DNA from: a virus | Lineage: Duplodnaviria; Heunggongvirae; Uroviricota; Caudoviricetes | IMG/VR virus record: IMGVR_UViG_2513237361_000015 | Location: 1-13,342 of that record | Direction: 5' to 3' (one strand) | Length of the DNA stretch: 13,342 nt | Shown here: positions 1 through 13,342 of the stretch, in pieces | Position numbering within the stretch: the stretch's first letter is position 1 | Layout: each line of letters starts with the position of its first letter | Position numbers and translations under genes: made by a program | The notes under the pieces: model-generated | What the model was told of the DNA's origin: nothing | The model's input: only the letters and a program-made list of their open reading frames with translations | Database searches by the model: none

Positions 1-982
1 TTAGTGAATATATCGAAAAAATACTTTTAAGCTAAAATTGCGGGTCAGATACGGCACCAGTGAATAGTTGATAAATCCCAGCCCCAGCTCTTCGATATTG
101 TTGAAGGTGGCGCGATCGGTGTTCTGCACCATGTGCAACGGCACCCGGAACAGACGACAGATTTCTTCAAGCTGAAACTTGCGGGTTTCCAGGAACTGGC
201 TGTCCTCGGCGTTCAGCGCCATCGACTTCCAGTCCAGCCCCATCTCAAGGATCATCGGGCGGTGAGCATTGCCAAGCCCGGTGTGACGCTCCTCAAAATC
301 TTTCTTCAGGCGCTCATAAGCCTGATCTGACAGCGTCTGCTCTGTACGCAACACACCCGACGTCACCGCGCCATTGCTGAACAGTCTGGCCCCGTGCTCT
401 TCGGTCGCGCCGCCAGCGATATTGCCTCGCGGGCATAGGCGATGGGATTCAGCCCCACCAGCCGTCCAGCGTCAGCGTGCGCACATGCCAGATATCTTCC
501 TGGCTCAGTACATCCGTGGAGCCGTCCGGGAATGTGACCTGATAGACCGGCTCCCAGCGACTGTTAAGCTTCGGTACCACACAACCGGGATCGACGGGCA
601 GCAGTTCAGCCACTTCGCCAAATGCTTTCACTTTATAGGCGTAAAAGTTGCCCCGCAGGCACAGACAGGTGACCACCAGCTCCCAGAACTCCTGCGGCGT
701 CATATAGCCATTGGGATGCGTGGAGATCAGCTTATGCAGACGTTCGCCAGTGGCTCTCTGCTTCAGGCTGCCGTTCAGGTGATACAGGTTGCAGGGCAAC
801 ATCCCGACCGACTCCGCCAGCACCCTGACACAGGAAAAAACCGCCGTCAGTCGCATGGCCCGCTGGCTGCTGATCTGCTTTCCGGTATAGGTGTGGTAGG
901 ACAACCCGATAGCATCCGCCAGCTCTGCTGGCGTGGTCACCGGTGCGTCACTTTTTCGTTGAAATAATCCCGAAAAGAACAC
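1..982 (-). pseudogene. Phage portal protein (HK97 family), disrupted by two frameshifts and 3'-truncated
   Basis: Minus ORFs 449..982 and 1..366 give portal-like sequence (N-terminal part ending TLTLDGWWG; C-terminal part with FQLEEICRLFRVPLHMVQN motif). The reading continues in a third frame as LNPIAYAREAISLAA between them, so two 1-nt shifts lie in about 400-455 (one at the C4 run 454-457). Total is about 330 aa and the last 12 codons are AT-rich. GTG start at 982 with GGAGG 6 nt upstream. Confidence 0.7.
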
Positions 983-1164
983 TATTTACCTCCGCCGACA
1001 GACGACTGTGTACGGTCGAGATATCGCGCCACCAGCCACGACCAGAACAGGCACAACGCCCCGGCAACAACAAACCCAGCCGGGGGATAAATCAGCCAGG
1101 CACCATACGCCAGCAAAAGCGCCCCCAGCACGCCCACCAGAGGCGCGAGAATCAGCATGATCAT
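982..1164 (-). CDS. Small hydrophobic protein (60 aa, two predicted TM helices) between terminase and portal
   Basis: ATG at 1164 preceded by GAGG with 5-nt spacer directly after the TerL stop; stop TAG overlaps the portal GTG (TAGTG). Sequence is almost entirely hydrophobic. Function unknown. Confidence 0.45.
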
Positions 1165-1175
1165 AATTACCTCAG

Positions 1176-2909
1176 TTAAAGCGAGCGGATCCCATAGGAC
1201 TCAATGTGGTCAGACAGCGTGTCTTCTTTCTCGTACAGCATGGCTCTGCCAACCGCCATAATCAGCGCAACTGCACCATCGATTTTGTTTTCCGCCTGCT
1301 CTTTGACGGGCTTCACCACATCATCGTTACCCGGAATGGTTTTGCCGACCACGTTGCCGATACACCAGGTCATGATGGGATTGCCATCATGATGAAAGCG
1401 CCCCGATTCAATTGCCGCTTCCAGCTCTTTCATCGGGTCGGACATGTTGGTGTAGTTCTGAATGATAGTGATGGGGTTCAGGTCTTCATCAGCAAGGTCA
1501 TGTGACAACCCGGTCGCCCCGAAGGGGTCGATGGGTGACTCACTGACCGGGCTGATTTTGTTCGCCGCTTTGGCCTCCTCGAGGATGTAGCGATAATCCA
1601 CCTCCGCACCATCGGTAACGGTCAGAACGCCCATTTCCACCCATTTCTGAAAGCGTTCGGCTGTCCGTCGATCTTCATTTTTCTCGACGCTGTACACCGT
1701 GTCATACGGTACCCAGAAACGCGGGGCCACACTGTAGTAATGCGTTTTACCGTCAATCTCGCGGGTATAAAGTCGCGCCATACTGTTCATATCCAGCTTA
1801 CGCGCCAGGTCAAAGGCCAGAATGCACGGCTGCCCCTCGAACTGCTCAAGGGTCAGTGATTTATCCTCGCAGCTCTGCCAGCTCACCAGATTGAAATACG
1901 CCGAACGCGCCGACACCCAGATATTGAGGTGTTTTGTTTTAAAGACGTTTGCCAGACGGGCGTTATTTTTCGCACGCTGCTGCTGACTTAACAAAAATTC
2001 GCGATAAACCGACACGCCAATATTTGGATTGGCTTTTTCCAGCACCTGCGGGTCGGTCCAGTCATCGCCTTCGTCAACGGTATAGATGATCCCGAACAGT
2101 TCATCGTTGGGCACCGAGCCGTTGAGCATCTCGATGACTTCCCGCCGCTTGTCGTAGCACGGCCCCTCAATGTTGTACCCGGCAGTAGTAATGGCCCACA
2201 TCAGTGGCTGACGTCGCGCCCCCATCCCGGTAAGCATCGTGGTGTAAAGCGCATCGGTGGCGTGCTCGTGATATTCATCCACCACGGCACAGTGGGGTGA
2301 TGAACCATCACCGGGGTTACCGATCAGCGGTTCAAAACGCGCACCATCCTCCGGACGGTTCATGTTTGAGGCGTTAACCTCAATCCCGAACGCTTCCGTC
2401 AGCATGGGTGTGCGTTTACACATCAGTCGTGCCGGACGAAAGACTTCCCATGCCTGTTTCTCCGTCGTGGCACCGGAATACACTTCCGCGCCGAACTCGT
2501 TATCACAGGCAAAACAATACAGGGCAACACCGGCAGAGATTGCCGATTTGCCGTTCTTACGGGGAATTTCGGTATACACCTCCCGGAAGCGGCGCAACCG
2601 GGTGCCTTTATTGACCCAGCCAAACGCACAGCAGATCACAAATAGCTGCCACGGCTCCAGCGTGATGGGCATCCGTTTAAATGCCCACTCACCCTTGGTG
2701 TGCGGCAACAGCTGAATAAATTTGGCGGCCCGTTCAGCCAGGTCCTTGTCGAAGCGGTAACGAAACGACTTACTTTTTTCCGCCATCAGGTCATCAAGAT
2801 GGCGCTGGCAGGCCTGAATCACAAACTGGCAGGCAACAATCTTTCCGCGCACGACATCCCGGGCATACTGATTTGCAGCATTTACGTTGGGGTAAGATTT
2901 CCGGCTCAT
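1176..2909 (-). CDS. Phage terminase large subunit
   Basis: 577-aa ORF with a Walker A-like PRKNGKSA motif and the overall look of lambdoid/HK97-type large terminases; start ATG overlaps the reconstructed TerS stop (ATGA). Confidence 0.9.
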
Positions 2910-3399
2910 GATTCGATAATTTTCAGAAACGGGTTAGTGGCTTTCTTCTTCCCCGCCAGGCCAATCAGACGCTGGCGGCTGCTGGGGTCGAGTCCGAGCA
3001 TTGCCCCCGTCTGCTCATCTCGGACTCCTGTTCTTTTTTGGCGGTCAGCTCCGGATTTTTGACCCTGCCGCCCATTGCACCGGTGATGGTGTTGCCCTGT
3101 ATGGCAATATTTTTCACGGCACGTCGCCAGAACTCATAGGCCACGCACCACCGCTCAAGTACCGCGAGGTCAGTCACGCACAGCAGGCCCTGACCGCAGA
3201 GTTCTTTGGTTGTCAGTTGCCACATGATCGTGGCGAGAGGGAGATCTTCTTCAGCGAACCACTCCGGTGGCTCAACACCTTTGATGGGCGTAAAAACAGG
3301 TTCATCTTTATTCAGGGCTCGCTTGCCGGGGTTTCCGGCCAGCGCCTTGCGCGCCGTTGGCTTGGGGCGACGCCCGGAACGCCCCGCCGTTCCAGCCAT
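2910..3399 (-). pseudogene. Phage terminase small subunit (P27 family), apparent 1-nt frameshift near its 3' end
   Basis: N-terminus MAGTAGRSGRRPKPTARKALAGNPGKR is P27-family-like; ATG at 3399 with AGGAG 8 nt upstream. The given frame stops at 2965, but the adjacent frame is open ([31 protein letters not shown]) down to a stop overlapping the TerL ATG. The switch point is the C5/G5 run at 3005-3009. Confidence 0.75.
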
Positions 3400-3408
3400 A
3401 TGCGGCAC

Positions 3409-3525
3409 TCCTGGTTAAATTTCATTTTTCGCGGGTATAAAAAAACGATGGGGCGGGCAGTCCGGAAGACGTCAGGTCACAGGGATTTGACCCGCCCCTC
3501 CCCCGCAGATAGTTGAGAGTTATTA
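3409..3525. other. Putative cos (cohesive end / terminase recognition) region
   Basis: Intergenic GC-rich segment between HNH endonuclease and terminase small subunit, the position cos occupies in HK97-type phages. On the minus strand it carries GGGGCGGG (3450-3443) and, about 41 nt further 3', its inverted copy CCCGCCCC (3401-3394). Confidence 0.3.
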
Positions 3526-3876
3526 TCACTTCAGTCGTTCACGGGCCGTCTTCGTCTTATGACACGGCCAGCACAGGCTCTGCAGATTGCAGTCTGCATC
3601 AGTGCCGCCATGCGCTTTAGGGATGATGTGGTCAACGGTTTTCGCCTCACGCACCACACCGACACGCAGGCACAACTGACACAGGCCTTTGTCACGCTTC
3701 AGCACGCGCGCGCGGATAACATCCCACTTCGAACCGTAGCCGCGCTGGTGACGGGATTGTCCTGGCTTGTATTGTTTCCAGCCTTCGCTTTTGTGGCTTT
3801 CGCAGTAGCCTGACGGGTCAGTGGTGGTTTGGCGGCAGCCGCGAACGCGGCAGGCTTTTGGGGTTCGTGGTGGCAT
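3526..3876 (-). CDS. HNH endonuclease (terminase-associated)
   Basis: ORF from ATG 3876 (GGAG 5 nt upstream) has paired Cys clusters (CRVRGC...C, CQLC, CWPC) and the DHIIPKAHGG HNH core; sits immediately upstream of cos and terminase as in HK97-like phages. Confidence 0.85.
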   Translation of the reverse strand: MPPRTPKACRVRGCRQTTTDPSGYCESHKSEGWKQYKPGQSRHQRGYGSKWDVIRARVLKRDKGLCQLCLRVGVVREAKTVDHIIPKAHGGTDADCNLQSLCWPCHKTKTARERLK

Positions 3877-3885
3877 GCTGGCTCC

Positions 3886-3912
3886 AATAAAAAACCCCGC
3901 GACGCGAGGCTT
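3886..3912 (-). terminator. Rho-independent terminator after the 67-aa membrane protein gene
   Basis: Minus strand reads GCCUCGCG-UC-GCGGGG followed by UUUUUUAUU: about 6-bp GC stem (one G-U pair) plus U6 tract. Confidence 0.5.
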
Positions 3913-3941
3913 AGACAGAAAAAACACCGGATAAGATCTGG

Positions 3942-4145
3942 TCATTCTTCCTTTTTAATAATGACTTCTCGAGGGCGCAATTGTTGGATAGCACGACAAA
4001 TACAATATGGAATAACTGCCCATGCTACTCCCATTGCTGCACCTGCAGCCTGTTGTGGAGCACTCTGAGCACCGAAAACCCCGAGGATTCCTTCAATAAA
4101 TCCAATAGCACTACACAAAAGACTGATGACCCAGAGAATTTTCAT
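3942..4145 (-). CDS. Small membrane protein (67 aa, two predicted TM helices), function unknown
   Basis: ATG at 4145 with AAGGAG 9 nt upstream; two hydrophobic stretches separated by a short Ala/Gln-rich segment, charged C-terminus KKEE; followed by a terminator. Confidence 0.5.
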   Translation of the reverse strand: MKILWVISLLCSAIGFIEGILGVFGAQSAPQQAAGAAMGVAWAVIPYCICRAIQQLRPREVIIKKEE

Positions 4146-4262
4146 AAACCCAAACTCCTTTTAAATAAACACTTTACTAGGATAATTCTCATAAAATGTT
4201 AGTAAAGTATTTTCAGGAAAATAGCGTATCACTGCCTATTTTTGACACTGATGCCGGGATAA

Positions 4263-4688
4263 TTATTCCGGTCGCTGGAGTTGCTCATGATGATACAGAG
4301 CGAGAATCAGGTCATAAGACCCTTGCCTGTCTTTGTAACCAGTTTTATCAACCAATTCAGCTTTACTGATTCCGGGTAAATCAAGAATCAGATTCGCAAC
4401 TTCAATTGCCCTTTGGTACAACTTACCGCCCTTTTTCTCCCCATGCAGTGGTTTTACATTCTTGAGGTAACCGCTATCCGCTAGGGCGAGAAATGTTGCC
4501 CTTGGGCATATCTTCTTTCTTGACGATTCGCTTTCTGTAACCTCTGCGACAGCTGTATCCCATGCATCACGAGGAGGCATTGAGCTATCAGCAACCAAAT
4601 GATAAGCGATTAAAGCGGCGCGCGCGTATTGAGACATAATGCATCCATATACAAAAATCTCATGATAAGACTTTTCTAATATGAACAC
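4263..4688 (-). CDS. Hypothetical soluble protein (about 124-141 aa), no recognisable domain
   Basis: Open frame immediately 3' of Rz on the minus strand in a lower-GC segment (about 42 percent in a 60-nt hand count). Start is uncertain: GTG 4688 overlaps the Rz 3' end, ATG 4637 has only a weak RBS. Confidence 0.4.
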
Positions 4689-5119
4689 TGTGATCTCACA
4701 TACTCTTGCAGGCCATTCAATTGGTTAGTTATGGTTTCGATGCGCTCTCTGAGAACGAAATAATCCCGTTGAGCGGTGTCAGTAAGTCTGGGGCTGGAAG
4801 CATCATCCACGCCGGAGGCGGCGGTGGTTTTATGCATGTCCGGACAGACTGCTTTGACGTGCAGCCACTTACGACCAGCAGAAACATCAGCACGAAGACT
4901 TTCGATAGTCGCGTTAGCATCAGCAAGCTCCTTTGTATATCTGGCATCGAGTTCAGCTACATTACTTTGACGTTTCTGCATGTCAGCGATAATGGATGCG
5001 GCCTTATCGCGCTGCTTTTTGTAGGTGATGGCGTTATCACGGTAATGATTAACCGCCCATGACAGGCAGACGATGATGCAGATAACCAGAACGGAGATAA
5101 TCGCGGTGACTCTGCTCAT
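4676..5119 (-). CDS. Rz: Rz i-spanin (inner-membrane lysis protein)
   Basis: 147 aa starting [34 protein letters not shown], with TKELADA and ASPRL...RDYF...RER motifs closely resembling lambda Rz; N-terminal TM anchor plus coiled-coil-like body. Confidence 0.9.
4729..4920 (-). CDS. Rz1: Rz1 o-spanin lipoprotein, embedded in Rz in the +1 frame
   Basis: Embedded ORF has lipobox LLVVSGC and CTSKQSV...KPPPPPAW...TPLNGIIS, matching lambda Rz1; internal Met start chosen from the longer 4729..4947 ORF. Confidence 0.85.
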
Positions 5120-5165
5120 ACCTCAATCTCTCTGACCGTTCCGCCAGCTTCTTTGAATTTTGCAA

Positions 5166-5393
5166 TCAGGCTGTCAACTTTATGCTCAAACTGACCATAA
5201 CCAGCCCCGGCAGTGAAGCCCAGATATTGCTGCAACGATCGCCACTGCGTTCTCTTCGGTGCGCTGCTGTTTGGCTTTCTCTGCTACTTTTCCACAACCA
5301 CGAACATTGCCAGTAAAAAACGCTGAGTGCGGCTGCAACCAGCACAACAATACCGCTAGCAATAATTTCTATGATTCCCATTATCTTTACCAT
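5166..5393 (-). CDS. Small hypothetical ORF (75 aa) with N-terminal TM segment; possibly frameshifted
   Basis: N-terminus MVKIMGIIEIIASGIVVLVAAALSVF is TM-like but the rest of the given frame is low-complexity. The adjacent frame after the A6/T6 run (5315-5320) reads TGNVRGCGKVAEKAKQQRTEENAVAIVAAISGLHCRGWLWSV, which looks more protein-like. Weak RBS. Confidence 0.3.
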   Translation of the reverse strand: MVKIMGIIEIIASGIVVLVAAALSVFYWQCSWLWKSSRESQTAAHRRERSGDRCSNIWASLPGLVMVSLSIKLTA

Positions 5394-5420
5394 CTCAGCA
5401 GTTTAGTTTTTGCAAGCATA

Positions 5421-5447
5421 AAAAAACCGCCCGAAGGCGGTTTTATA
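5421..5447 (-). terminator. Strong rho-independent terminator (usable in both directions)
   Basis: AAAAAA-ACCGCC-CGAA-GGCGGT-TTTT: 6-bp stem with tetraloop (UUCG on the minus strand), U-tracts on both sides; lies just 3' of the 93-aa gene. Confidence 0.6.
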
Positions 5448-5462
5448 ATAAATATACTAACC

Positions 5463-5744
5463 TCAGTCTTCCGTTCCATCTGGGTTGACAGGTTTGGTGA
5501 TTGCTTTCAGTCGAACAACTGGATCACCATCACCGTTGCTTACAACTGTTCTAATGGTCTTGTCATCCCGAGGGGTAAATGTTACTTCTACATCAAATCC
5601 CATAGCTGCATGTTCATCACACAAATAAGCGTTAGTATTGTGGGCCCAAATTGCAGATAAATTATCCAGTTCACGTCTCAGACGCACACCGATAATTTTA
5701 TCTGCATGTCTACCACATCCTTCAATGATGCATGTTCCTGACAT
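5463..5744 (-). CDS. Cys-rich small protein (93 aa), possible zinc-binding, function unknown
   Basis: ATG at 5744 with AAGGA 7 nt upstream; Cys at positions 5 and 10 plus a later LCDEH Cys/His pair suggest a small zinc ribbon; placed directly 3' of the methyltransferase. Confidence 0.5.
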   Translation of the reverse strand: MSGTCIIEGCGRHADKIIGVRLRRELDNLSAIWAHNTNAYLCDEHAAMGFDVEVTFTPRDDKTIRTVVSNGDGDPVVRLKAITKPVNPDGTED

Positions 5745-5796
5745 TGTATTTTCCTTCTTTGGTTAACCAAGGAGAAAACTACCATAAACCAGAAAC

Positions 5797-6720
5797 CTAT
5801 TCAGCTTTTTTGCTGTAACTTACTACGCTAGTTAACCTTTTTCTTTCCAGCCCAAGTCGTTCTTTAGCTACTTGGCAGTGTTCATCAAGCAATTCAAAAC
5901 CTACTGACTTTCTGGACAGGCGAGATGCCGCCACAAGTGTAGTGCCTGAGCCTGCAAACGGATCCAAAACAACATCGCCTTCTGTTGTAAACAAACGAAT
6001 AAACCATTCAGGAAGAACTTCGGGGAATGCTGCACTGTGGCCTTTGTTACCACATTCAGTTGCCATGTGCAGCACATTCGTCGGGTATGCCATTTCTCTT
6101 CCCTGCCAGTTTGAAATGTTCTTTCCGAACCCACTACCAACTCGCGACTCATCCCTCATCATGTCCCGCGAGCTTAATTTTTTTAGCCTCTCATTCTTCC
6201 AGTCCCCCACAGGAACCATAACCGCTTCTTGGTACATTGCAAACTTTCTGTTTTTTGTAAAGTGCAGACAGCGTTCCCAAGAATCTCTGAATCTATTAGG
6301 CCATTTACCAGGGAATGAATTCTTCTTATGCCAGATATATTCTTCTGTCCACAGCCAACCCAGCTCTCGCATTTTAAGAATAAGCTCTAAAACATATGTA
6401 TGTCTTTCGCCATTCACTACCTTCTCTTTAATGTTAAGCACAAAGGAGCCTGAAGGCTTAAGAACCCGTAGCAGTTGCTCCGCTATAGGTGAAAACCAGT
6501 CAACATACTTGTCAGGGGCAATGCCACCATAAGTCCTCTTTCGTTGATCTGCATACGGTGGTGAAGTAACGATGAGATCTACAGAAGAATCGTCCATCAT
6601 GGTTAGCAACTCAAGACAGTCTCCTTGATAGAGATTTATCTCATCAGTTTTTATATTAATTGTCGCTTTTTTAAGCATTCCATACATCTCCAGCGAAAGT
6701 AACTGAAGAATAGCAGCCAT
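5797..6720 (-). CDS. DNA methyltransferase, beta-class N6-adenine/N4-cytosine type
   Basis: Motif IV SPPY (TSPPYADQ) lies N-terminal to motif I DPFAGSGTT, the order typical of beta-class amino-methyltransferases; SPPY leans towards N4-cytosine but is not decisive. Likely true start is ATG 6678 (MLKKATINIK, GGAG 9 nt upstream). About 37 percent GC in a 60-nt hand count. Confidence 0.85.
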   Translation of the reverse strand: MAAILQLLSLEMYGMLKKATINIKTDEINLYQGDCLELLTMMDDSSVDLIVTSPPYADQRKRTYGGIAPDKYVDWFSPIAEQLLRVLKPSGSFVLNIKEKVVNGERHTYVLELILKMRELGWLWTEEYIWHKKNSFPGKWPNRFRDSWERCLHFTKNRKFAMYQEAVMVPVGDWKNERLKKLSSRDMMRDESRVGSGFGKNISNWQGREMAYPTNVLHMATECGNKGHSAAFPEVLPEWFIRLFTTEGDVVLDPFAGSGTTLVAASRLSRKSVGFELLDEHCQVAKERLGLERKRLTSVVSYSKKAE

Positions 6721-6793
6721 TCTTCCTGCGGTCCATCTCTTTCTACCCAGTTTTTTAAATTACATGGGTGCTTGGATAACTTGCCGCCGTCCC

Positions 6794-7405
6794 TCACACC
6801 AGCACCGATTTCGCCAGGTTAAACAGCGCGCGGCGTTTATCCAGACCGTTACTACCGCCATTAATAAGCAGCGTGACGCGTCCCAGGTCGCCAGAATGAA
6901 GCAGGCAACCGCGGGAAGCATAGAACCACGCAGCTGAGCGCGCGGCGTATTCATCCTGTTCCAGCAATTCAGGCTGGGTAACAAGGTCGAGTTTTAGTGC
7001 GTAGCCACAGATGCAATAATTACGGAGACCAGTGATTTGAATTAATCCTCTACCACGATATTTCCAGCCATCACCGGGTGCTTTGTTACCCAGTCGGTTG
7101 CTATACACCAGATTGGCAATAGCATCCTGACGAGCTGCATGTCCGGATGTTCTACCAAGGGCATCAGCCTGCTGCTGTGTGATCCTCTTTCCGAACGTCG
7201 CCACCAGCGCAGATGGTGTGTAGTTAAAATTTTCAACTACGGCGCTAAACCCCATCGACTCATGGCCTACCTGAGCGATAAACATTGCCTGATCCGCTGG
7301 TGCTGTAATGCCGAATTCCTTCATCGCCGCATCAATGTGCGGAAACCAGCGCGCAGCCAGCCCGGCGCTAATACCAGCCGCCTTTTGAAATAATTGTTGG
7401 TTCAT
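6794..7405 (-). CDS. Endolysin, glycoside hydrolase family 19 (chitinase-like phage lysozyme)
   Basis: 203 aa with AARWFPHI...EFGIT...AMFIAQVGHES.GF...ENFNY...GDGW.YRGRGLIQITG...QPELL.QDEYAARSAAWF...INGG.NG motifs characteristic of GH19 phage endolysins; ATG overlaps the upstream stop (TAATG). Confidence 0.9.
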   Translation of the reverse strand: MNQQLFQKAAGISAGLAARWFPHIDAAMKEFGITAPADQAMFIAQVGHESMGFSAVVENFNYTPSALVATFGKRITQQQADALGRTSGHAARQDAIANLVYSNRLGNKAPGDGWKYRGRGLIQITGLRNYCICGYALKLDLVTQPELLEQDEYAARSAAWFYASRGCLLHSGDLGRVTLLINGGSNGLDKRRALFNLAKSVLV

Positions 7406-7686
7406 TAGTGCCTCAGATGATCAACCAGACGTGCAACGTTGCCTCTGACGGCCACCAGCACGGAAAGGAAAATAGTGTTCGCCACGATAATGGGCCATGA
7501 GGAATGAGGATAAATCCCACAGAGATAGGCCAACGGAACAGCACTGTATGTAACAGTAATCAGCCAGGCTAAACGTGAAACCCAAGGACGATGCCGCGAA
7601 TCACCACGACGATAAAACATCAGAGTAATAACAACACAAGCACATAACAGCGCATTTATAGTTGCTGTCGGGTCATTTAGCTCCAC
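7405..7686 (-). CDS. Membrane protein (93 aa, about 3 TM), holin/antiholin-like lysis accessory
   Basis: Hydrophobic ORF between the putative holin and the endolysin, overlapping both neighbours; assignment rests on position and hydrophobicity only. Confidence 0.45.
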   Translation of the reverse strand: MELNDPTATINALLCACVVITLMFYRRGDSRHRPWVSRLAWLITVTYSAVPLAYLCGIYPHSSWPIIVANTIFLSVLVAVRGNVARLVDHLRH

Positions 7687-8059
7687 CTGAACCTCCCCGG
7701 CGCGTTATGAGCGCCACCAGCGAGCCGATATCCTGATTATTCAGGAACGTCAGGATTTTAACGGCTAAAGCAGAGACGATTACGGCACCAATAGCATCCA
7801 GAGGTTTATCACTGTATCCGGTCAAGTTCGCCAGCTTGGAGCCAACCAACCCAGAGCAAAGAATCCCGGCAATATATGACACGATAAAATATGCCAGTCG
7901 ACGCGATGCACTCAGATCTGCTGCTGTTGCTATGTAGAATACAGCCCCTGCAAATGCACCAAATACAACGCCGTAATCAGTTCCGGTCAGCAGTCCATAA
8001 ACACTGGCACCCGTCAGGGCACCACCAGCCAGCCCAGTACCGGAAATTGGATCGGACAT
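7673..8059 (-). CDS. Putative holin (128 aa, multiple TM segments)
   Basis: First gene of the lysis cluster after the Q-proximal cargo; Gly/Ala-rich TM segments and charged C-terminus; ATG 8059 preceded by GAGGGGG with 4-nt spacer. Confidence 0.55.
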   Translation of the reverse strand: MSDPISGTGLAGGALTGASVYGLLTGTDYGVVFGAFAGAVFYIATAADLSASRRLAYFIVSYIAGILCSGLVGSKLANLTGYSDKPLDAIGAVIVSALAVKILTFLNNQDIGSLVALITRRGGSGGAK

Positions 8060-8172
8060 TTAGCCCCCTCTTAATTGCTGTGAGTCCTCTCAGGTATGAG
8101 GGGAAATAGGCTCAGGCTTCACGGGCTGGATATATCAACAAAGCACGTAACGGATGATTCCCGTGATCCTGA

Positions 8173-8199
8173 AATAAAAAAGCCCCGCTATTACGGGGC
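8173..8199 (-). terminator. Rho-independent terminator after the 213-aa moron gene
   Basis: Plus strand AAATAAAAAA-GCCCCG-CTATTA-CGGGGC; on the minus strand this is a 6-bp GC stem followed by UUUUUUAUUU. Confidence 0.6.
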
Positions 8200-8219
8200 A
8201 GTTAATAGAATTATAAAGT

Positions 8220-8861
8220 TTAAAAGTTTAAAGAAACCATAAAGCTACCAGGCTCTGCACCAGCTTCTTTATTTATTTCTTTACGGATTACCTCATTAAC
8301 CTGAAAAGCCTCATTGTAAACTTTTTCTAAGTTAATTGACGCCTTCATATTATAGTATGTTTTTTCCTCACAAACATATAACCTTATCGGATATGGCCTA
8401 GGGTTGATTGCCTTCCAGTGGGAGATCACAAAATTATAAACTGCAATACCATGACCTTTCATCTTCCCTGCTGTAACATCAATGTTTAGCTGATCTAAAT
8501 ACTCATCGAAGTGTTGCAAGGTGTTTCTCACCCTCACGGAATTAATTTCCTTAATTTCAATATCTTTTATTTTTTGTTGAAGGTAATTACTTCGCTCAAT
8601 ATGCAATCTGAATTGTTCAGGGGATTCTTCCCTAGTCTTATTTTTAGGAACTGCGATTAGTTTCTTGACGTTAGCCGCATCTGAAAGAATGCTATTTATT
8701 AATATATGAATATTGTAATCAATTTTAAAGTAGTAACCAGCATCAGGAAGTGGTGTCTCATGAAAGAGCTCTTCACAGCGTGTTTTTATCGAATGAGTTA
8801 ACAACCATAATTCGTGCAAATAAATAAAATTAAGTTTCATTTGCTCAAAGGTTTTTGACAT
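8220..8861 (-). CDS. Hypothetical protein (213 aa), AT-rich moron in the Q-to-lysis hotspot, no recognisable domain
   Basis: Uninterrupted ORF with ATG 8861 and AGGAG 8 nt upstream, about 30-33 percent GC in hand counts against about 52 percent for the phage backbone; own promoter-like element and terminator; no TM segments or motifs I recognise. Confidence 0.65.
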   Translation of the reverse strand: MSKTFEQMKLNFIYLHELWLLTHSIKTRCEELFHETPLPDAGYYFKIDYNIHILINSILSDAANVKKLIAVPKNKTREESPEQFRLHIERSNYLQQKIKDIEIKEINSVRVRNTLQHFDEYLDQLNIDVTAGKMKGHGIAVYNFVISHWKAINPRPYPIRLYVCEEKTYYNMKASINLEKVYNEAFQVNEVIRKEINKEAGAEPGSFMVSLNF

Positions 8862-8889
8862 AGCGAACTCTCCTTTTCAATAGTCCGCT

Positions 8890-8919
8890 TTTATAGCATT
8901 TACATAAGGGGCCTGTGAA
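8890..8919 (-). promoter_or_regulatory. Candidate sigma70 promoter for the 213-aa moron gene
   Basis: Minus strand TTCACA (8919-8914), 18-nt spacer, TATAAA (8895-8890), about 30 nt upstream of the ATG. Confidence 0.3.
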
Positions 8920-9016
8920 TTACTATTCTGTTGCTTACCACACTCTCGCAGTGGCCGCGCTCATGCCTTTGAGACCGTAGTCAGGGGTATCTCATGAATC
9001 CCTCACCTCTAACCGG

Positions 9017-9037
9017 AGAACGATTGGCGATCGTTCT
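9017..9037. repeat. Perfect 8-bp inverted repeat AGAACGAT-(5 nt)-ATCGTTCT
   Basis: Read directly from the sequence; no flanking U-tract on either strand, so not a terminator; candidate protein-binding palindrome or RNA hairpin in the late leader. Confidence 0.5.
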
Positions 9038-9202
9038 GGAGTACCGGCACACCTCTTCTTTATTAACCCTAACCAGTGTGTGTTGCAGTTCGTACCTGCA
9101 TCTGGCTCTCATGGAGACTCGGGACCGCATCACGACTGCGGATTTGCCTATCGGCTGCGGTCTATCCGTTTACTGGTGCATTTTCTTACCCTCCAGAAAA
9201 GC

Positions 9203-9226
9203 AAAAACCCCGCCGAAGCGAGGTTT
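9203..9226 (-). terminator. tR'-like rho-independent terminator in the late-transcript leader
   Basis: Minus strand CCUCGC-UUCG-GCGGGG followed by UUUUUGCUUUUCU, about 45-60 nt downstream of the candidate late promoter; strand-specific, since the plus-strand version mispairs. Confidence 0.5.
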
Positions 9227-9273
9227 GTTATGATTTCGTTAACGGCAGACATACAAAGCCCATCGTTAGGAAA

Positions 9274-9302
9274 ATCCTAACCAGATTTTTTGAAAAATGC
9301 AA
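9274..9302 (-). promoter_or_regulatory. pR'-like late promoter (candidate site of Q engagement)
   Basis: Minus strand TTGCAT (9302-9297), 17-nt spacer, TAGGAT (9279-9274), beginning about 32 nt after the Q stop codon, the canonical lambdoid position. Confidence 0.4.
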
Positions 9303-9333
9303 GAATCATGTCGCTATCTTCGGCGAAAATCAT

Positions 9334-10086
9334 TTATCTCGTCACTTTTCTTAATTGCGCCTCAGCATATGCTTCTTCCTGCCAGCACTTTGTCACCAGT
9401 TTATCAATGACATCTGCATATCCTTTGTACCACTGATAATCCGTCAGGTCTGGTACCAGCTTCTGGACATGATGCCGCGCCAGTGTGGTTGGTAAACGGC
9501 TAAACCGGTTTCCATTGCAACGCCCACAAATCTTATAAACAGGCATGCCATGAAGCCGGGTTCTTTTTTCATCCAGGACAATACCTTTACCCTTACACCC
9601 TCTGCACGCTGTGCTGACTTCTCCCTTACCATGACAATGCTGACATAGTTCCTTCACCCACTCTTCCTTGATAACAGATTCCCCGTTTCTGGAGTGTTTC
9701 ACCACTTCGCGCAATACATTATGAAATCCCGTACCTGCACAATGCTCACAGCGAGCCTTACTTGCCGCAGATCTGGAATAATCAGCAAAGGCAAAATTCA
9801 CAAGGTAAGGAATGATCTGTAGCCGGGTTTCTTCACTCAATTTATTCAATGTCGGGTTATCCAGTGCCATCGCGTAATTGAGCAGACCTTCAATCGCAAA
9901 CTGAGGATCCTGAACACCAACTTTTGCCAGGAATAAGGCAAACCCAAGCGGTGCTTTCGACTGCACCATCCCCTGCGCAGCCATCACATCCGTAATCGTT
10001 AAACCACCTGAGCCTGTCGCCGGTGCGTCATCGCTCAATTTTGGAGATTTTGGGGAGTAATATTTTGGTAAGGCTTCAAGGTTCAT
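9334..10086 (-). CDS. Q: Late-gene antitermination protein Q (lambda Q family)
   Basis: Matches lambda Q at YSPKSPKLSDD, TDVMAAQGM.QS, FAFADYSRSAAS.ARCEHCAGTG and C-terminal KVTR; carries an extra Cys/His-rich segment (CQHCHGKGEVSTACRGCKGKG, CGRCNG). Start chosen at ATG 10086 (GGAG 7 nt upstream, just after the DUF968 stop). Confidence 0.85.
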   Translation of the reverse strand: MNLEALPKYYSPKSPKLSDDAPATGSGGLTITDVMAAQGMVQSKAPLGFALFLAKVGVQDPQFAIEGLLNYAMALDNPTLNKLSEETRLQIIPYLVNFAFADYSRSAASKARCEHCAGTGFHNVLREVVKHSRNGESVIKEEWVKELCQHCHGKGEVSTACRGCKGKGIVLDEKRTRLHGMPVYKICGRCNGNRFSRLPTTLARHHVQKLVPDLTDYQWYKGYADVIDKLVTKCWQEEAYAEAQLRKVTR

Positions 10087-10099
10087 GCTCGTTCTCCAC

Positions 10100-11095
10100 T
10101 TACGCCAGTACGCCAATTGCCAGCGCACGATCGATAAAACGAAATATCAGCTCCAGTTGGGAGCCATACTTCTCTTCAAATGCCACGGTATCCGCATGCA
10201 GTTCGTCGTGATGCTTTCTGCACAAAGGCAACACAAAGAGGTCATGCGCTTTTGTACCCATTCCCCCCTGACCGTGGCCTATCAGGTGGTGGGGATCATC
10301 AGCAGGCTTTCCACAACATGCACACGGCTGTGTCTTAACCCAGCGCGTGTACTTTTCATTAACCCAGCGGCGACGTTTGGGGCGTAACATAAAAGACTCC
10401 GGCGACTCCGGCTCCACTTTCAGCGCCAGCACCTTTTTCGCTTTATCCTGGATGATGCTGGTGGCAGGAACCGAAGGCACAAGGTCACTTTCCCGGGTGA
10501 CAGACGGCACAACAGGCTTCGGTAATCTCAGTGCCTTACGGGCTGCACTTTCCGGTAAGGCATCCGCCAGATCATTACGAACCAGCCACCAGCACAGTTC
10601 CGGCATTGTCACAACGTGACTGTCATCAAAACCGAGATCCCGACGCACAACAGACAACACCCAGCGGGCACAGTTATCCGTTGCCATTGATTCCAGCCGT
10701 TCCGTGAATTGATCGCGCAGCTGGTTATCACAGTGCCAGCACAGACGGATTGCGCCCGGAGCGTGTCGCATTGTGGTCATGTTCTCGCTGTGCCAGTCGG
10801 AATGAGGCCACTGGCAGCCCTTTTCACGAAGTAACCAGCTTTCAAGACATTCCACGCCACCAGCACGACGGATCACTGCCTCATTGCGGAACACGGCCCG
10901 AACAGCAGGATCATCCGCCAGCGGTTGTGATGCCGCGGGAACGGCACCACTGGCGAAAGATGAATAACGTTCCGGCTCAGGCTCCAGCAGTACACGCCCC
11001 TGCATAAACAGGGGCATCAGCTCTGAACCTGGTCTGAACAATACGATCCCCATACGCGGGGCTATTTCAGGGGTCAGTAGTGCTCTCACGGTCAC
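10100..11095 (-). CDS. DUF968-family prophage protein with HNH-like Cys/His C-terminal motif
   Basis: 331-aa ORF whose C-terminus (CACCGKPADDPHHLIGHG...LCRKHHDELH) fits the zinc-binding motif of DUF968 proteins found next to Q in lambdoid prophages; start GTG 11095 or 11089. Confidence 0.65.
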   Translation of the reverse strand: MTVRALLTPEIAPRMGIVLFRPGSELMPLFMQGRVLLEPEPERYSSFASGAVPAASQPLADDPAVRAVFRNEAVIRRAGGVECLESWLLREKGCQWPHSDWHSENMTTMRHAPGAIRLCWHCDNQLRDQFTERLESMATDNCARWVLSVVRRDLGFDDSHVVTMPELCWWLVRNDLADALPESAARKALRLPKPVVPSVTRESDLVPSVPATSIIQDKAKKVLALKVEPESPESFMLRPKRRRWVNEKYTRWVKTQPCACCGKPADDPHHLIGHGQGGMGTKAHDLFVLPLCRKHHDELHADTVAFEEKYGSQLELIFRFIDRALAIGVLA

Positions 11096-11096
11096 C

Positions 11097-11636
11097 TCAA
11101 TGAACGGTATCGAGCAGCTTTAACAGCTCAGGGAATCGGGATTCGAAGAAATGCGGCTGCGTCTCGCGCGGATTTGCGGGACTGGTGATGTTCTTGCCGA
11201 ACATGCAGCCTTTCGCTGTCAGCGACCAGAATTTTTTGATGTTGTTAATCGCGGTACGGCTGTATCGTTCGCGCTGCTCGACGATCCCCAGCTTCACCAT
11301 CTGGTGATATGCCTGATTAGCTGTCAGGTGGATACCATACTGCTTCAGCAGTGCACTCAGTGACAGCGTGGGGCGGCTTGAACCATCAGGCGCGTCAGCA
11401 GGAGCATCAATGGCATAGCGCGGTGCCAGATTCGGTAAGCCAACAGCCTCCTGGAGTTTCTGACAGGCACCAAGCACTGAAGAGTTAGACAGGTTTAACT
11501 CCCTGCGCATAAAGTCCAGCAGAATCACTCCAGCCTGCATCTTGTCAGCAGCCTGCCCGGATAATTTTTCCGGTACGCTGGTTACCATGTCGAAAGTACG
11601 GATCACCTTCAGATGGAATGACGGGCTGATCCACAT
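11097..11636 (-). pseudogene. Phage antirepressor-like protein, 5'-truncated (only the last part of a KilA-N domain plus the C-terminal domain remains)
   Basis: Recognisable sequence begins at DYVCKELVYAYAMWISPSFHLKV, which resembles the C-terminal end of KilA-N domains; the upstream part of the 318-aa ORF is low-complexity and overlaps the plus-strand fimbrial gene. First in-frame ATG is 11636. Confidence 0.45.
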
Positions 11637-11787
11637 TGCATAGGCATACACCAGTTCCTTGCAGACATAATCGGATTTTGAACTGCGGTTGCCAGCAGAG
11701 GGTACACCTGCAGCATGGCAGGCGGGGCTGAATGTGACGGTTACAGTACAGTGATGGTTGCAGGGATATAAGGAGAAAAAAAGAGAA

Positions 11788-12552
11788 ATGAAAAAGGTGA
11801 CGTTGTTTCTGTTTGCTGCCGGCCTCCTGCCTTCCTGTGTACTGGCCTGGAACACGCCGGGAGAAGATTTCAGCGGAGAGCTTAAGCTGGAAGGCCCGGT
11901 GACCAGCACCCGTAACCCGTGGGTATGGAAAGTCGGACAGGGAAATGAAGGCCTGGAGGTTAAACAGAGCCGCGGTGTTCGTGACGGTGAGCAGGCAATT
12001 CCGGTCGCACTGCCGGCGATGCCCGTTTTACTGGGAAAAACCACCCTGACCACACCGGCAGGACGTGAGGGGCTTTCTCCCCGTGTCAGTTACGGAAAGG
12101 GTACTGAGGGATTTTCATTTGAATGGACAGCACCAGGCGTGGCGGAGGTGACGCTGCCTGTCACCGGAGATAATAACGTCCGGGCAGGCACTTTTGTTTT
12201 CAGAATGCAGGCTGCGGGGGTGTTGCGCCATGTGAAGGACGGACAGCCGGCGTATGCCGGTGTGTATGACGACCTGAATGTGAATGGTCTGCCTGGTGAA
12301 AGCGCAGCCATGAAGACTTCTGATATTCCGGGTGTTCTGCAGAAGATGTTCAGTGGCGAAGGCCCCGGCTGGCTGCAGACAATGACCATCAGTGGTTATT
12401 CAGGAGTGAGTCATTTCAGTGATGCCTCCCTGCGTCAGGTCGAAGGTGCGTATGGCGCACAGATGGTGGCGGGCAGTGGTGAATTACGTCTGAACGGTGC
12501 AATGCCGGAACGCTGGCGGGTGTCACTGCCGGTAAGTATTGAGTACCAGTAA
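11788..12552 (+). CDS. K88/F4-family fimbrial subunit (FaeG/FaeH-like)
   Basis: Signal peptide MKKVTLFLFAAGLLPSCVLA, then WNTPGEDFSGELKLEG...WVWKVGQG...MPVLLGKT, recalled from memory as resembling the mature N-terminus of K88 FaeG; C-terminal strand ends SIEYQ. ATG 11788 with AGGAG upstream. Confidence 0.55.
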   Translation: MKKVTLFLFAAGLLPSCVLAWNTPGEDFSGELKLEGPVTSTRNPWVWKVGQGNEGLEVKQSRGVRDGEQAIPVALPAMPVLLGKTTLTTPAGREGLSPRVSYGKGTEGFSFEWTAPGVAEVTLPVTGDNNVRAGTFVFRMQAAGVLRHVKDGQPAYAGVYDDLNVNGLPGESAAMKTSDIPGVLQKMFSGEGPGWLQTMTISGYSGVSHFSDASLRQVEGAYGAQMVAGSGELRLNGAMPERWRVSLPVSIEYQ

Positions 12553-12568: not shown

Positions 12569-13342
12569 GTGCTGAATATTATTCATCGTCTGAAGTCCGG
12601 TATGTTTCCGGCTCTGTTTTTTCTGACTTCAGCCAGTGTGCTGGCGCAACCGCTGACTATTCCTCCGGGCCACTGGCAGGAGGGTATGGCTGTGGGCGTG
12701 ACGGAATTCAGCGGCACGCTGTATGTCCGCGATGTGTCCTGGCAGTGGCAGCCCCGCGCTGTGCGTATGAGTTCTCCTGATGCTGTGCAGGCTGGCCTGG
12801 CAGCGGGTAAAGGTGGCATGGTCAGTGAAAGCCGGAGAGGGCAGGATTTTTATATTCTTGGCGGGCATACCACATCACTGACAACTGCCCGTCCGGGGCT
12901 GCAGCCGTCGGTGACATTGCTTCAGGTGACACCATCATCCCCCCGTATTGAGGCCCGGGGAGAACTTGCCCGGGGACAGGTACGTTACGGGGAAATCACG
13001 TTCACGCTGCGCCATCTTCTGGCATGGCAGGACAATATTACTGGCGGTCAGGGCTGGAGCGTGGTCAGCGGAGAGGTGACGCCGGAGGCCGAAAAACAGG
13101 TGAAACGCCAGTTATGGCAGGTGAACGGCTATGAATGGACCCCGGATTATGCCGGATTAACCGCACGTCCTGATGCGTTTATTTCAGGAACTGAGTCGCT
13201 GTTGTCACAGGGGAATGGCAGCCAGCATATTGCCGGTGCCTGGGTGATGTACCTGAGTGATGTGCGGGTGAATTTCCCCGGTGCTGAGGAGCCGGTAAAA
13301 CGCTGGCAGGGTAATCTGACACCGGTGGTGGTGTATTTCTGA
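12569..13342 (+). CDS. Second K88/F4-like fimbrial subunit paralogue, secreted
   Basis: GTG 12569 with AGGAGG 8 nt upstream; signal peptide (LNIIHRLKSGMFPALFFLTSASVLA-QP); same length class and W.W / FSG pattern as the upstream gene; ends VVVYF. Confidence 0.5.
   Translation: MLNIIHRLKSGMFPALFFLTSASVLAQPLTIPPGHWQEGMAVGVTEFSGTLYVRDVSWQWQPRAVRMSSPDAVQAGLAAGKGGMVSESRRGQDFYILGGHTTSLTTARPGLQPSVTLLQVTPSSPRIEARGELARGQVRYGEITFTLRHLLAWQDNITGGQGWSVVSGEVTPEAEKQVKRQLWQVNGYEWTPDYAGLTARPDAFISGTESLLSQGNGSQHIAGAWVMYLSDVRVNFPGAEEPVKRWQGNLTPVVVYF

Follow-up and report, generated by a model that had tools for sequence, protein, structure and literature searches.

The stretch of DNA analysed here (the window, 13,342 nucleotides) contains an 11.6-kb phage fragment at positions 39 to 11670, with its genes on the minus strand, flanked on the left by the end of an Rhs-linked gene (1 to 38, plus strand) and on the right by the distal part of a K88-like fimbrial (fae) locus, also on the plus strand. 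The phage fragment is cut at both ends and, based on alignments and Pfam matches, is collinear with E. coli prophages at 97-99.6% identity. It begins with a truncated portal gene (39 to 982), which is followed by ymfR, TerL, TerS, an HNH gene, small ORFs and an Rz-like lysis gene. An N6/N4 DNA methyltransferase, a GH19 endolysin, two holins and a 213-aa ORF come next, and the order ends with a Q antiterminator (9334 to 10086), a DUF968/HNH gene (10100 to 11089) and a truncated KilA-N gene (11097 to 11670), all on the minus strand.

The portal fragment comprises the first ~315 of 413 codons and is 98% identical to the portal gene of the E. coli prophage L001. Two 1-nt deletions, near positions 409 and 462, divide it into ORFs of 177 aa and 121 aa. 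They lie 370-420 nt from the end of the phage fragment and probably reflect errors of the consensus close to the end of a contig, or possibly true decay. At the other end of the fragment, the genes lying to the right of KilA-N in intact relatives are RusA, LexA-like, Dam and PerC genes, replication genes, cII/cro/cI-like genes and an integrase. We found none of these in the window or within the next 9 kb, in agreement with the first-pass annotation, which had noted from the sequence that the replication and immunity region was absent from this side.

Two further features of the phage fragment were observed. The AT-rich 213-aa ORF (8220 to 8861, minus strand, ~34-38% GC) is placed between the genes for the Q antiterminator and the holins, where Stx phages carry stx. 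It has a counterpart in prophage L001 (7221-7862) and had no match in Pfam, PHROGs or NCBIfam, the PADLOC hit to CasR being insignificant (E = 0.004). The N6/N4 DNA methyltransferase (5797 to 6720, minus strand, 307 aa) is encoded within the lysis cassette, flanked by the endolysin gene and the Rz-like gene, in a region (3895 to 7257) that had no match to L001, which is otherwise the closest relative. We read the methyltransferase and this divergence as ordinary phage mosaicism.

The KilA-N gene is represented by its 3' 574 nt (11097 to 11670, minus strand), equivalent to codons ~79-269 of 269 according to Pfam, PHROGs and alignment with homologues. The intact gene, found at 10098-10907 of L001, is 810 nt long and encodes 269 aa. 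In the source record, the gene was called at 11097-11651 with a GTG start at 11651, giving a product of 184 aa, while the ATG at 11636 proposed earlier would give a 179-aa product. The 184-aa ORF corresponds to residues 86-269 of the 269-aa homologue at 99% identity, and to positions 87-268 of 273 in phrog_129 (E = 4e-83). It therefore holds the conserved C-terminal region of a 265-286-aa phage protein and lacks a complete N-terminal KilA-N domain, as it covers positions 76-105 of the 107 in the Pfam profile (PF04383), compared with 5-105 in the intact homologue. The earlier description of a truncated remnant, in which only the tail of the domain is recognisable, was therefore correct. Because the homologues are mostly 265-286 aa long and all contain the KilA-N domain (among the best 120 of 3,156 matches), neither the 179-aa nor the 184-aa form is native. 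In addition, the fimbrial genes are followed by fusA-rpsG-rpsL and not by phage genes, so the idea that a complete native protein is followed by a continuing phage genome fails on both counts.

The gene had also been labelled an antirepressor. No match to an antirepressor family (e.g. PF03374 ANT or PF09669 Phage_pRha) was detected; Pfam gave KilA-N alone and PHROGs gave 'transcriptional regulator'. The name suggested by these profile matches is only that of a KilA-N domain protein or phrog_129 transcriptional regulator.

Ten natural copies of the KilA-N gene fell into two N-terminal allele families, which are 68% identical overall and 56% identical over the last 100 nt before they converge to 96-99% identity. 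In the KilA-N genes of L001, L006-L015 and L026, the switch from the family-specific part to the common C-terminal part is sharp and occurs at gene position ~233-236. The switch forms a clean natural mosaic boundary inside the KilA-N domain.

On the plus strand, the fimbrial fragment starts with the last 27 codons and the stop codon of faeH, a K88/F4-type minor subunit gene (11671 to 11754), which aligned to the 3' ends of faeH in two annotated loci (L002 and L003). The coding part (11671-11751) encodes the last 27 FaeH residues, SDFELRLPAEGTPAAWQAGLNVTVTVQ, directly followed by the stop. An intact faeI (11788 to 12552, 254 aa) follows, with a full-length match to Pfam Fimbrial_K88 (PF02432, E = 8.7e-79) and homologues annotated as faeI in RefSeq, and then an intact faeJ (12569 to 13342, 257 aa), collinear with the annotated faeJ of the same two loci, at whose stop codon the window ends. 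Including the 342 nt that follow faeJ, the fragment is 2.2 kb long and is cut at both ends, with 81 coding nt plus the stop of faeH at one end.

The fimbrial piece has up to 96.7% identity to known fae-like loci. It lacks the usher FaeD, the chaperone FaeE and the major subunit of an F4 (K88)-type operon, and its neighbours are phage DNA upstream and fusA downstream. The first-pass annotation described the phage remnant as fused to a fimbrial operon, which overstates what is present. Fae-like loci were mostly found on plasmids (136 of 163 places). No E. marmotae representative with this fae locus was found, as the search returned only a MAG, Salmonella diarizonae and Edwardsiella.

The switch from phage to fae homology was located at positions 11669-11671 (junction J2), inside the KilA-N gene on one side and 81 coding nt before the faeH stop on the other. 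In ~3,800 complete E. coli genomes and 50 phage records, the match to the minus-strand phage genes ends at 11669 or 11670, and in all fae-like loci the match starts at 11670 or 11671 and none earlier. A four-way alignment gave the sequence across the junction as ...GCAGACATAA / TCGGATTTTG..., with 0-1 nt in common to both sides. The discontinuity is thus a true feature of the deposited sequence, with a position defined to the base. The first-pass annotation had estimated a breakpoint within KilA-N at 11.65-11.76 kb from the sequence alone, and the alignments to relatives with an intact prophage and to full-length KilA-N homologues, both proposed as checks at that stage, located it within this interval.

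A 318-aa ORF runs through the junction in the KilA-N frame, and its portion upstream of J2 is an antisense read-through of the 3' end of faeH and the 5' end of faeI. This stretch was initially thought to overlap both the promoter and the 5' end of a fimbrial gene. The supposed promoter is the 3' end of faeH plus a 33-nt spacer.

The features of a prophage end were looked for at this boundary. No att-like direct repeats pairing the regions around 38/39 and 11670 were found, the tRNA search at the boundary found none, and an integrase was absent from the gene calls in the window and in ~9-10 kb on either side. The break also falls inside coding sequence, and the junction does not resemble an attL or attR site. 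An insertion of the phage fragment into faeH was considered as well and was rejected, because the left flank (positions 1-38) is the Rhs-tip ORF and not faeH.

The window is 100% identical to part of AEME01000001.1 (GCA_000208565.2), a single "contig" of 4,809,826 bp, which we examined over positions 4,760,802-4,793,353. AEME00000000 is Escherichia sp. TW09308, a member of cryptic clade V (now E. marmotae) from Michigan freshwater (PMC7716201). The core genes in the flanks of the region are 92-93% identical to E. coli, and the phage piece is up to 99.6% identical. The order in the record is nrdHIEF-proVWX, a 1.4-kb Rhs fragment, the 11.6-kb phage fragment, the 2.2-kb fae fragment and then fusA-rpsG-rpsL-tusBCD...kefB. 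Within ~16 kb, there are therefore four blunt joins (J0 to J3), with an overlap of no more than 3 nt at each. In K-12, the outer flanks lie ~0.67 Mb apart, with nrdHIEF-proVWX at ~2.80 Mb and fusA...kefB at ~3.47 Mb. No IS end, att repeat or tRNA was found at any of the four joins.

The first of these, J0, lies ~1.4 kb to the left of the window (L018 position ~11781), where the sequence 50 nt past the proX stop is joined to the interior of an Rhs core, a multi-copy sequence present in 3-4 places per E. coli genome. At this site, K-12 continues into what we take, from inspection by eye, to be a REP-like repeat. The Rhs fragment ends in a 97-aa ORF located after the Rhs C-terminal tip, which is called in the source record (L018 10332-10625). 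The last 35 nt of this ORF (stop at 33-35) and 3 nt more make up positions 1-38 of the window, on the plus strand, and were a 100% match to the end of a hypothetical gene in E. coli ETEC1738 and two other genomes. J1 follows at 38/39, 3 nt after the stop of the Rhs-tip ORF, where the sequence passes into the phage portal gene at an internal position. Matches to phages start at positions 39-41 in every case, and polymorphic portal sites lie 2 and 5 nt after the break.

The last join, J3, is located 342 nt past faeJ and the right end of the window (L004 11897/11898), between the interior of a hypothetical gene of the fae island and the fusA-tufA spacer. It falls exactly at the base before the tufA start codon, and the tufA/tufB repeat of K-12 begins at nt 2 of that codon. 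In the record, tufA is missing next to fusA. The absence of tufA at the boundary of the tuf repeat is a classic signature of a contig that ended in a collapsed repeat.

J2 lies on boundaries of the same kind on both sides. On the phage side, the break is 3 nt past the point at which the two KilA-N allele families converge, which is the position of the last family-specific base. On the fae side, it coincides with the transition from a variable faeH body to a conserved block of the faeH 3' end, faeI and faeJ, with SNPs at -1 and -4, and the mutual identity of the fae loci rises from 78-94% to 97-100% around the breakpoint. The breakpoints in this region therefore fall on boundaries of repeated or multi-allelic sequence (the tufA start, the Rhs core, the REP-like flank, the KilA-N alleles and the fae transition), and the neighbouring blocks are non-syntenic, with several joins in series. 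When a genome has two related copies of a sequence, the assembly graph branches at such boundaries and the contigs end there.

From these results, J2 is most probably an unmarked join of separately assembled draft contigs of TW09308 in AEME01000001.1, and not a biological deletion. The 11.6-kb phage piece would have ended where the assembly graph branched inside the KilA-N gene, and the 2.2-kb fae piece would have begun where it branched inside faeH, in which case the two pieces would not be neighbours in the cell. The 184-aa KilA-N ORF and the 318-aa ORF would then be functionless by-products of the join. We infer that the record is a concatenate of contigs and that the branches were caused by second copies in TW09308, such as a related prophage, a second fae-like locus or an IS element. 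The two deletions in the portal gene, together with an nrdF that is split in the left flank, fit a consensus of draft quality. Searches with the full-length KilA-N and FaeH proteins for the missing halves of both genes tied no match to AEME01000001.1 among the best 120 listed for each (3,156 KilA-N matches in total), and looking up exact proteins likewise gave no match that could be linked to this record. The prophage boundary or deletion in a living genome that was proposed originally is one of four blunt joins at repeat or allele boundaries, and is probably better explained by pasted contigs.

The presence of two of these joins in a contig of another accession argues against a join of contigs. 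The Logan contig SRR29904084_2662463 (4,515 bp) is 100% identical to the record from window position 9197 through both J2 and J3. It ends 27 nt beyond J3, which is the last 31-mer with a fae-specific base, and this end position shows only that the normal fusA-tufA context is also present in that sample. Because such contigs are assembled from sequencing reads, the joins are either present in DNA or were carried into SRR29904084 by reads that derive from the deposited record, for example through a simulated community. We consider the latter more likely; the run had no mention in the literature searched by accession. The chimeric 121-aa and 177-aa portal ORFs occur in the NCBI record only and had no match from the Logan sample; this does not inform on the left join in that sample, because conserved phage genes fragment in such assemblies.

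A real illegitimate recombination event, in which a defective prophage of TW09308 lost its early region and its KilA-N gene was fused to the decayed distal end of a fae locus, is an unlikely explanation for J2. The event would have left a 184-aa KilA-N remnant, no longer functional, beside orphaned faeI and faeJ genes. The exact reproduction of J2 and J3 in a contig from a separate run favours such an event, the 0-1 nt overlap is compatible with it, and internal deletions that end in the KilA-N gene do occur, as in L026 (GCA_050198575.1), where KilA-N is fused to a tail-sheath gene. However, this would require all four consecutive blunt joins to be genuine, with tufA lost precisely at its start codon and with proX and fusA as neighbours. 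Random breakage or illegitimate recombination also offers no cause for J0, J3 and both sides of J2 to lie on repeat or allele-branch boundaries, and there is no IS element, att site or integrase at any join. J2 was in no other genome searched, as it was not found in 5,426 complete E. coli genomes, PLSDB plasmids, INPHARED phages, GTDB species representatives, IMG/VR or JGI metagenomes, and J3 was likewise not found in the JGI metagenomes.

Taken to its full extent, the possibility that all four joins are real would describe a natural tufA-less Escherichia, which we regard as improbable. Directly downstream of fusA, the place of tufA would be taken by a patchwork of captured fragments, namely the distal fae genes, the 11.6-kb phage late region and an Rhs tip, put together by illegitimate joining without any IS element and linking two chromosomal regions ~0.67 Mb apart in E. 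coli. An artefact was judged likelier than real joins because J3 matches the boundary of the tuf repeat exactly and because the four joins would have to be real together.

Another, very unlikely possibility is that the record is a gap-closed scaffold, in which the order of the pieces is roughly right and a multi-copy element (tufA, an Rhs core or an IS such as IS1414) was dropped and the ends abutted, so that each of the two genes would be split by a repeat element, with no fusion of KilA-N to faeH. The position of the joins at repeat boundaries, the fusA followed by an absent tufA, and the predominance of IS1414 in E. marmotae, including its presence in TW09308 (PMC6650469), would fit a dropped repeat. 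Against this, proVWX and fusA are ~0.67 Mb apart in K-12, which makes it unlikely that the order of the pieces is genomic, and fae-like loci are mostly plasmid-borne, as mentioned above. The Logan contig also shows directly abutted ends, which suit neither a true IS-containing structure nor a scaffold of this kind unless SRR29904084 comes from the deposited sequence.

Judging from gene content, no function would be expected of the three fragments, whichever of these explanations is right. The DNA-binding domain is missing from the KilA-N remnant, faeI and faeJ have no usher, chaperone or major subunit with them, and genes for integration, immunity, replication and the virion are missing from the phage piece.

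If the joins between contigs in AEME01000001.1 are artefacts, as we consider probable for J2, there is no prophage boundary, fusion protein or linkage between phage and fimbriae left to explain. The main value of the result is then a warning on the reference record. For cryptic clade V / E. marmotae, the TW09308 sequence is a widely used single-sequence reference. With unmarked joins in it, calls of gene order, prophage boundaries, pseudogenes and "truncated genes" made from this record would be unreliable, and simulated data derived from it would share the fault. Apparent junctions in AEME01000001.1 need to be checked against reads. A real join would represent an unusual instance of tufA being lost with precision, combined with a multi-fragment patchwork.

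Compared with known systems, the fimbrial part resembles the F4 (K88)-like fae loci found on islands and plasmids of E. coli, E. marmotae and Salmonella, in that faeI, faeJ and the 3' end of faeH are collinear and 95-97% identical. It differs in consisting of the distal 2.2 kb only, without faeA/B-type regulators, faeC, faeD, faeE, faeF, the major subunit and 238 of the 265 faeH codons.

The phage part resembles the products of cryptic-prophage decay, for which the defective lambdoid prophages of K-12 are examples. An instance of real decay at KilA-N was observed in L026 (6001-6828), where an internal prophage deletion removed everything from DUF968 to the sheath gene and left a genuine in-frame KilA-N::tail-sheath fusion of 275 aa. 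We had considered this genome as a sister pseudochromosome and rejected it, as it is an unrelated genome with a genuine internal deletion. As in such decayed prophages, the fragment studied here is lambdoid, lacks the integrase, immunity, replication and most morphogenesis genes, and has its break in KilA-N. In L026, however, the sequences flanking the deletion come from a single prophage whose remainder is in place. The sequence joined to the phage genes here is instead an unrelated piece of a fimbrial locus, itself cut at both ends, and the phage fragment has a second cut at 38/39.

The remaining comparison is with draft "pseudochromosomes" made by concatenation of contigs. The region differs from these in that its joins have no linker or N run and in that a read-derived contig of another accession carries two of them, which pure concatenation does not predict unless the reads come from the record. 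In drafts of this kind, the contigs stop at repeats that have collapsed, for instance tufA/tufB, Rhs cores, REP elements and paralogous prophages. The likeness to a concatenated draft lies in abrupt switches without shared sequence, in endpoints at repeat and allele boundaries, in joins that occur in series, in small pieces of mobile DNA between non-syntenic core blocks and in chimeric ORFs across the joins.
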